From: Escherichia phage Turkey5
Sequence record: PQ471516.1
Length of the DNA stretch: 64,000 nucleotides
Strand: one strand, 5' to 3'
The notes beneath the pieces are model-generated. The model was not told the origin of the DNA and searched no databases. It saw only the letters and a list, made by a program, of their open reading frames with translations. Positions 19,998 to 20,353 of this stretch are shown in pieces (position 1 is the first letter of the stretch; every line of letters begins with the position of its first letter). A program made the position numbers and the translations under genes.

Positions 19998-20207
19998 ATG
20001 TATTACACCGTATACAGTGTTCTAGGCACTATTGCAGGCGTACATGATAACGTCGATAGTGCTATGCGTACAGTACTGCAACAGGTTCCACTAAAGCCTA
20101 AGACCATTAAGCAGATGACAGCACGACTAACCAGGGCGACGGCTGGCGTGGAAGTATGGCAGGACTATGGGGATACACAGATAATCGTAAGCGTAACGAA
20201 GGATTAA
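19998..20207 (+). CDS. hypothetical protein (69 aa)
   Basis: RBS CAGGAG; preceded by hairpin AGGCCGCT-CTCT-AGCGGCCT; 3' end lies in the first copy of an 80-bp tandem repeat. Confidence 0.55.
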   Translation: MYYTVYSVLGTIAGVHDNVDSAMRTVLQQVPLKPKTIKQMTARLTRATAGVEVWQDYGDTQIIVSVTKD

Positions 20208-20353
20208 TGCGTAAAAGGATTTAGTACTGATGCATTTTAAATTTTATGCATTTTTTAAAAACTACGCAAAAAATAACGAAGGATTAATGCGTAAAAGGAT
20301 TTAGTACTGATGCATTTTAAATTTTATGCATTTTTTAAAAACTACGCAAAAAA
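20194..20353. repeat. Perfect or near-perfect 80-bp tandem duplication (2 copies)
   Basis: Unit TAACGAAGGATTAATGCGTAAAAGGATTTAGTACTGATGCATTTTAAATTTTATGCATTTTTTAAAAACTACGCAAAAAA read twice, head-to-tail; the first copy contains the stop codon of the ORF at 19998. Confidence 0.85.

Follow-up and report, generated by a model that had tools for sequence, protein, structure and literature searches.

The 64,000-nt stretch of Escherichia phage Turkey5 analyzed here (PQ471516.1; hereafter, the window) includes the last gene of the terminal repeat (DTR), an exact 80-bp tandem duplication that overlaps the end of this gene, the predicted inner end of the DTR, and the beginning of an array of paralogous genes. 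The features of the locus are as follows, with a slash marking a junction, an edge, or the predicted cut within a sequence.

19998..20207, + strand: last DTR gene, 69 aa, function unassigned (ORF list; phrog_17833)
20194..20273, no strand: repeat unit 1, 80 bp (Tandem Repeats Finder, repeat search, string identity)
20219..20231, no strand: AGTACT box of unit 1 (ATTTAGTACTGAT), which is the additional copy, at a distance of 209 nt from the predicted DTR end
20230..20256, + strand: ATGCAT-N10-ATGCAT hairpin followed by a T-run, present again at 20310-20336 (fold; 2 G-C pairs)
20274..20353, no strand: repeat unit 2, 80 bp, with the same sequence as unit 1 (same evidence as for unit 1)
20299..20311, no strand: AGTACT box in unit 2, the last one before the predicted DTR end, at a distance of 129 nt; invariant in aligned relatives
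20384..20415, no strand: end-proximal conserved blocks, GGGATTGGACTATG at 20384-20397 and ATGCGT plus a G-run at 20403-20415 (both alignments)
20423..20444, no strand: predicted right DTR boundary, 20432/20433, CGGGTAACCT/TAGCGACTTCGA (homology to fEgEco12, G17, and vB_Ec-M-J)
20464..20491, + strand: sigma70-like promoter TTGACT-16-TAAAAT (10/12 matches; kept in relatives)
20522..20752, + strand: first gene of array A, which consists of tandem phrog_4148 paralogs (ORF list, phrog match)

The window derives from an Asteriusvirus, a jumbo coliphage of the 121Q/PBECO4/G17-like kind, and the region is 86-98% identical to Asteriusvirus 121Q, PBECO4, G17, fEgEco12, vB_Ec-M-J, and others, the nearest deposited relative being vB_EcoM_JNE01 (96%; JNE01 hereafter). 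Window position 1 corresponds approximately to position 1046 of those relatives whose records begin at the left end of the DTR. The termini of fEgEco12 have been determined by PhageTerm and confirmed with restriction digests, yielding a DTR of 20,993 bp (PMC13070987). By comparison, we found the first and the last 20,993 nt of fEgEco12 to be identical; in this phage, the stop of the last DTR gene is at 20841 and the repeat extends to 20993, where it terminates in ...GGGCGGGTAACCT and the left copy continues with TAGCGACTTCGATAAAG. The homologous stretch of the window is ...GGTGCGGGTAACCT/TAGCGACTTCGAGAAAG. The DTR annotated in vB_Ec-M-J (1..21525) ends 152 nt past the stop codon of the orthologue of the 69-aa gene, and the end of the G17 record coincides with this annotated end. 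In the annotations of vB_Ec-M-J, G17, and fEgEco12, the DTR closes with an orthologue of the 69-aa gene, and the DNA of the Turkey5 gene is 94-96% identical to that of the last DTR gene in the relatives. From this homology, the DTR of Turkey5 is predicted to end at 20432/20433, which is likely the position of the terminase cut; the other DTR copy lies outside the window. The boundary motif is present and is followed by the array promoter (20423-20444 and 20464-20491, respectively); in the composition profile, neither GC content nor skew changes sharply there. A previous annotation made from the nucleotide letters of the window (the sequence-only reading) had placed the duplication at a module boundary between an "early region" and array A. 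This early region is the DTR, approximately 21-21.5 kb in length, and the boundary proves to be its inner end, a physical genome end and terminase cut in the relatives.

The product of the last DTR gene matches phrog_17833 over its full length (69/69, E=2.8e-36), and no record with the exact 69-aa protein sequence was found. The final 14 nt of the gene, with its TAA stop codon (20205-20207), fall within unit 1; the protein is unaltered and corresponds to a full-length phrog_17833 member, indicating that the coding sequence is unaffected by the duplication. On the other side, the promoter at 20464-20491, which reads TTGACTTTTTATAT... and is conserved in the spacer alignments, lies 111 nt downstream of the repeat, outside the DTR, and drives the next gene array. 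The placement of the duplication across the stop codon of the last early-region gene and upstream of the promoter of array A was thus correctly described by the sequence-only reading. The unique region opens with array A as its first operon. The number of phrog_4148 paralogs in the array (20522-23210) varies among close relatives (contigs L015-L024 and JNE01): window positions 21162-21402 align twice to L015 and L016, and 22281-22453 are missing from JNE01. This variation is consistent with unequal crossing-over inside the array.

Structure of the repeat and of the terminal spacer

Direct string comparison and a repeat search agree that 20194-20273 and 20274-20353 are identical 80-bp units arranged head to tail, as the sequence-only reading had reported, and Tandem Repeats Finder describes 20194-20353 as an array of period 80 with 2.0 copies, 100% matches, 0 indels, and a score of 320, the only long-period array that it detects in the 64 kb. 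Because the 80-nt match is exact, a chance origin of the repeat is ruled out. Identity at period 80 extends over exactly 160 nt and stops at both edges, where the flanks differ (20193 g versus 20273 a; 20274 t versus 20354 a), such that microhomology at the junction is zero. The junction between units 1 and 2 reads ...ACGCAAAAAA/TAACGAAGG... (in a shorter form, ...CTACGCAAAAAA/TAACGAAGGATT...); at the outer edges, the left flank meets the start of the unit in GTAAGCG/TAACGAAGG, and the end of the unit meets the right flank in CGCAAAAAA/ACTAAACC. No further copies of the unit of at least 14 nt were found elsewhere in the 64-kb window. In alignments with JNE01 and seven other assemblies, all of these carry one copy, which matches the position of unit 2; given that the right flank of unit 2 is ancestral, this unit is the positional equivalent of the single copy in the relatives.

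The spacer between the last DTR gene and the end of the DTR was aligned across 13 genomes and, separately, across nine sequences of the window's own spacer type. The conserved elements are the end of the last gene, an AGTACT box located 16 nt past the stop codon (GGATTTAGTACTGA), the end-proximal blocks, the boundary motif, and the promoter. The labile part of the spacer lies between the AGTACT box and GGGATTGG, and here the lineage comprising the window and JNE01 differs from all others. In most phages, 152 nt separate the stop codon from the DTR end; the JNE01 type has 145 nt here, and the window 225 nt. Included in the 80-bp unit are the final 14 nt of the gene with the stop codon, the DTR's last AGTACT box, and the greater part of the labile stretch, with an AT-rich weak hairpin. 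The repeat is located inside the DTR, with its right edge 79 nt before the predicted end, and the conserved end motifs sit 31-91 nt downstream of the repeat, none of them being duplicated.

Each unit contains ATGCATTTT twice and AGTACT once (at 20223 in unit 1 and at 20303 in unit 2), in agreement with the internal sub-repeats and AGTACT site noted previously. Folding of the unit as RNA gives a hairpin, AUGCAU-N10-AUGCAU, with a U-run after it (-14 kcal/mol; z=-2.5 versus shuffled sequences), whereas the single copy of JNE01 folds no better than shuffled sequences (z=+0.3). The second ATGCAT is replaced by AGTCAT or AGGCAT in 8/8 other assemblies, from which it follows that the sub-repeat is a private substitution common to both copies in the window. 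An intrinsic terminator was considered for this hairpin and rejected: the stem contains 2 G-C pairs, it was not called by the terminator scan, and it is not conserved even in the closest relatives. A search of Rfam yielded no family for the repeat, the sole match being at chance level (E=0.77), and no DnaA boxes were found within 19-22 kb of the window. An iteron, an operator array, and an injection-stop-like repeat are likewise not supported, considering that the relatives are single-copy, that there are just two identical copies, and that DnaA boxes are lacking. In fEgEco12, the two DTR junctions, left and right, have just one motif in common, the ubiquitous AGTACT box, and the candidate terminase site common to both junctions was rejected on this ground.

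Several additional elements were observed in the spacer. The 9-mer ACCTTAGCG, which spans the predicted boundary (AACCT/TAGCG, 20429-20437), recurs 64 nt upstream at 20365-20373, and the other lineages contain an imperfect counterpart of this pair at the homologous place (GGTAATCCCTTGACTT versus GGTAACCTTAGCGACTT). The upstream copy could be a second terminase-site-like element or a chance occurrence, with approximately 0.3 such pairs expected in the 700 nt scanned. Nested inverted repeats precede the DTR end: ACGCAAAAAAAC and GTTTTTATGCGT (20344-20355 and 20397-20408) enclose CCAATACC and GGGATTGG (20360-20367 and 20384-20391). In other lineages, the conserved GGGATT block pairs with a different 5' arm (AATCCCTT with AAGGGATT), and this alternative pairing of the arms may reflect the maintenance of a hairpin or cruciform near the DTR end. 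Finally, two metagenomic relatives, contigs L017 and L022 (both 2131-2937; ENA ERZ27268760 k141_107635 and Logan SRR13243551, respectively), encode a 268-aa protein from a gene with its own promoter. This gene is inserted ahead of the array promoter, right after CGAGTACCT/TAGCC, a variant of the DTR-end motif.

AGTACT boxes in the DTR

The AGTACT box that is duplicated along with the unit belongs to an abundant class. The palindrome AGTACT occurs 275 times in the window, compared with 20.3 +/- 4.4 occurrences expected from dinucleotide shuffles, and is the commonest hexamer in the 64 kb; CAGTACTG is the commonest octamer, and the extended consensus is TT-CAGTACTG-AA (for example, at sites 27, 498, 4116, 12515, 20223, and 23217). 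The motif is similarly enriched in the DTR of fEgEco12. Three-quarters of the sites (207/275) lie within ORFs, in all three frames, which points to a signal at the DNA level, and conservation of the AGTACT sites with respect to JNE01 is 93.7%, as against 83% for other hexamers. A full-text search for papers on AGTACT with "jumbo phage" returned none, a faint indication that the AGTACT system has so far gone undescribed.

In the early promoters of the DTR, two AGTACT boxes are found approximately 20 bp apart (4673-4706, 12243-12276, 12515-12548, 12812-12845, and about 10 further spacers), with one box abutting the -35 element (AAAAAGTAC-TTGCAA; AGTAC-TTGCAA) and the other forming an extended -10 element (TAGTAC-TG-TATAAT). 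Judging from this arrangement, the paired boxes look like an operator pair overlapping each early promoter. A second class of AGTACT sites, AGTACTGAATCA (palindrome ATTCAGTACTGAAT), is located 3-16 nt past stop codons. Tandem units of 10-15 nt bearing AGTACT are present in different numbers in the window and in JNE01 (13418-13427, 23237-23250, and 23505-23519), JNE01 has extra 13-mers opposite window positions 518 and 562, and Tandem Repeats Finder reports arrays at 23215-23254 and 23487-23525. Comparison of these sequences indicates that the AGTACT box arrays expand and contract.

Two zones of the window, 20309-23216 and 26035-30926, are free of AGTACT, the former starting at the DTR end and covering the phrog_4148 array. 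In the window, JNE01, and fEgEco12 alike, the boxes end at the DTR end and are followed by a box-free phrog_4148 array, suggesting that the DTR boundary is also a switch in the regulatory architecture. The last AGTACT box of the DTR is located 129-136 nt from the DTR end in these three phages (136 nt in fEgEco12). The AGTACT site in the repeat unit is not special to the terminus and does not indicate a terminus-specific signal.

Copy number and origin of the duplication

The sequence-only reading had suggested comparing copy number in related isolates. One copy was found in 34/34 related GenBank records that match and span the region. Contigs encoding the first protein of the array were recovered from ten independent places (ENA metagenome assemblies, Logan SRA assemblies, and JNE01); eight of these ten, JNE01 included, have the window-type spacer and all eight carry one copy, whereas in the remaining two, the same spacer type is accompanied by the 268-aa gene inserted just outside the boundary. 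Together with a metagenome contig (L195), which also carries one copy, the comparison thus covers 34 GenBank relatives, seven further assemblies, and one metagenome contig, all single-copy, and, given that the two copies in the window are identical, the recent age proposed for the duplication is upheld. A 30-mer spanning the duplication junction had no matches in IMG/VR, JGI metagenome contigs, or GTDB genome contigs, and a 27-mer from within the unit had no match in IMG/VR. A scan of IMG/VR and metagenomes with the 14-mer GGGATTGGACTATG, too short a pattern for collections of this size, produced about 240 loci, of which two were genuine after filtering (121Q and L195), both single-copy. There was no near-clonal comparator among the 10 independent assemblies, the best being 98.4% identical, and the duplication is therefore best described as private to this genome rather than as absent from the same strain.

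We consider it probable, at roughly 0.6, that the repeat is a very recent and probably neutral tandem duplication private to Turkey5. An 80-bp segment would have been copied head to tail via illegitimate, homology-independent replication or recombination. The zero microhomology at the boundaries, with flanks mismatching on both sides, is atypical of slippage between short direct repeats and speaks to that extent against a real duplication; the lack of microhomology implies that the event, if real, was homology-independent. Unit 1 would retain the stop codon and unit 2 the ancestral right flank, leaving the gene intact, and the end-proximal motifs, the predicted cut at 20432/20433, and the downstream promoter would all remain untouched. 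The native spacing of 129 nt between the last box and the DTR end would be kept, with the extra box at 209 nt, while the spacer would have grown from 145 to 225 nt, gaining a second AGTACT box and a second weak hairpin. Phages with DTRs restore the two repeats of every packaged genome from the one that is present in the concatemer, and by the same process in Turkey5 both terminal repeats would carry the duplication, adding 160 bp to the DNA of each virion. Such an addition is negligible for a capsid holding approximately 370 kb, and the expected phenotype is none or minimal. Among the indels of at least 6 nt that distinguish the window from JNE01, approximately 7/17 are tandem copy-number changes of adjacent sequence, five of these with AGTACT. 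The repeat, what it contains, its lack in all relatives examined, and the place of the conserved DTR-end motif are seen directly in the sequences, whereas we infer the DTR end at 20432, the physical presence of the duplication in the phage DNA, and its selective neutrality.

The main rival explanation, which we regard as possible but unlikely, is an assembly or finishing artefact, whereby the ends of a circular or collapsed contig, overlapping by 80 nt and rotated or re-joined untrimmed, would have created a false internal duplication; the overlap could stem, for example, from the k-1 overlap of a de Bruijn assembly with k=81 or from a manual join. The repeat has the appearance of an untrimmed overlap of a circular de Bruijn contig, with precisely two copies that are 100% identical, a round length of 80 nt, and a junction without microhomology, although the presence of two exact copies and no others is a necessary and insufficient mark of such an overlap. 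The duplication is also unique among approximately 43 relatives, its junction is missing from the IMG/VR, JGI metagenome, and GTDB contigs, and depositors in this genus often re-orient records and paste DTR copies, with record starts differing and lengths of 348-386 kb. However, an overlap artefact would normally be located at the record ends unless the record was rotated, would be k or k-1 in length, and would fall at a random position. The usual values are 55, 77, 99, and 127 for SPAdes and 141 for MEGAHIT, and 80 nt does not equal the terminal overlap from these commonest settings. A random break in a genome of approximately 350 kb that is about 85% coding would usually hit a gene, whereas the repeat avoids coding sequence and conserved elements; an assembly with a collapsed DTR would have no graph branch at or near the repeat to cause a contig end; and natural tandem indels are frequent in these spacers. 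The duplication falls in the only part of the region that is labile in evolution, the spacer's middle, and is almost wholly non-coding, sparing every conserved element, which fits a surviving real event better than a random assembly break.

It is very improbable that the duplication is functional, changing the behavior of the DTR end. Under one variant of this explanation, a second operator-like AGTACT box and a second weak terminator might shield the last DTR gene from the genome end or from the array; under another, modeled on the T5 terminal repeat with its repeat-rich inner end, the duplication might alter a packaging or injection-stop region. The repeat is positioned 79 nt from the predicted DTR end, the duplicated AGTACT box does not vary among relatives and is one of a class of motifs subject to purifying selection (93.7% versus 83% conservation), and folding of the unit is better than that of shuffled controls (z=-2.5). 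Against this stand the lack of conservation, with one copy in every relative examined; a hairpin that rests on private substitutions, is gone in JNE01, has 2 G-C pairs, and was not called by the terminator scan; the absence of DnaA boxes and of an Rfam family; the ubiquity of AGTACT, the sole motif common to the left and right DTR junctions; and the location of the conserved end motifs outside the repeat. A conserved packaging or regulatory repeat is therefore not supported. The packaging-related site envisaged by the sequence-only reading holds for the neighborhood, which is the inner end of the DTR, but the repeat does not mark that site, the end motifs lying downstream in a single copy; the suggested regulatory repeat is not upheld, as nothing points to iterons or an operator array and the ATGCATTTT hairpin is private to the window.

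Relation to other phage termini

The inner end of the DTR in fEgEco12, vB_Ec-M-J, and G17 resembles the window in the succession of the last gene, GGGATTGGACTATG, ATGCGT plus the G-run, CGGGTAACCT/TAGCGACTTCGA, the promoter, and the phrog_4148 array. The spacers of these three phages are 152 nt long and single-copy, whereas the lineage of the window and JNE01 has a diverged middle part (145 nt), and the window alone has 80 bp more (225 nt). The locus is a member of the Asteriusvirus class of DTR inner-end spacers, whereas the repeat is a member of no conserved repeat class.

The terminal repeat of T5 (Tequintavirus) contains small, individually promoted early genes and, at its inner end, a repeat-rich, non-coding injection-stop region, which is long, conserved in T5-like phages, and reported to contain numerous direct and inverted repeats and DnaA boxes. 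The window is alike in having a long DTR with small early genes and a non-coding inner end, but its 145-nt spacer differs in having one private duplication and in lacking DnaA boxes. A T5-like injection stop is not supported for the repeat, given the lack of DnaA boxes and of a conserved repeat array, and two-step DNA transfer is, to our knowledge, not known for Asteriusvirus. The concatemer junction of T7 and T3 comprises conserved multi-copy arrays of short repeats beside a 160-bp terminal repeat. T7, T3, and the window are alike in the sequence-specific ends flanking the DTR and in the repeats near the boundary, but the window has an unconserved two-copy 80-bp duplication within a 21-kb repeat. 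The resemblance of the repeat to the inner end of T5 and to the junction repeats of T7 would thus be one of location only.

For the terminal spacer as a whole, it appears quite improbable that it constitutes a recognition region defining the DTR end in packaging or a T5-like stop for stepwise DNA entry. The features that could be read in this way are the last AGTACT box approximately 130 nt from the end, the nested inverted repeats, the second ACCTTAGCG, and the G-rich blocks. If the spacer did have such a role, the duplication would be a natural variant, tolerated or selected, as the proximal box-to-cut spacing is kept.

The duplication itself carries little weight, being either an ordinary strain-private indel or an artefact that is relevant to the use of this genome as a reference. 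Placing the DTR boundary at the predicted 20432/20433 helps to orient and annotate the genome. The by-products of the analysis may outweigh the repeat: the strongly conserved motifs at the DTR end, and the selected over-representation of AGTACT in the early promoters, which stops at the end of the DTR.
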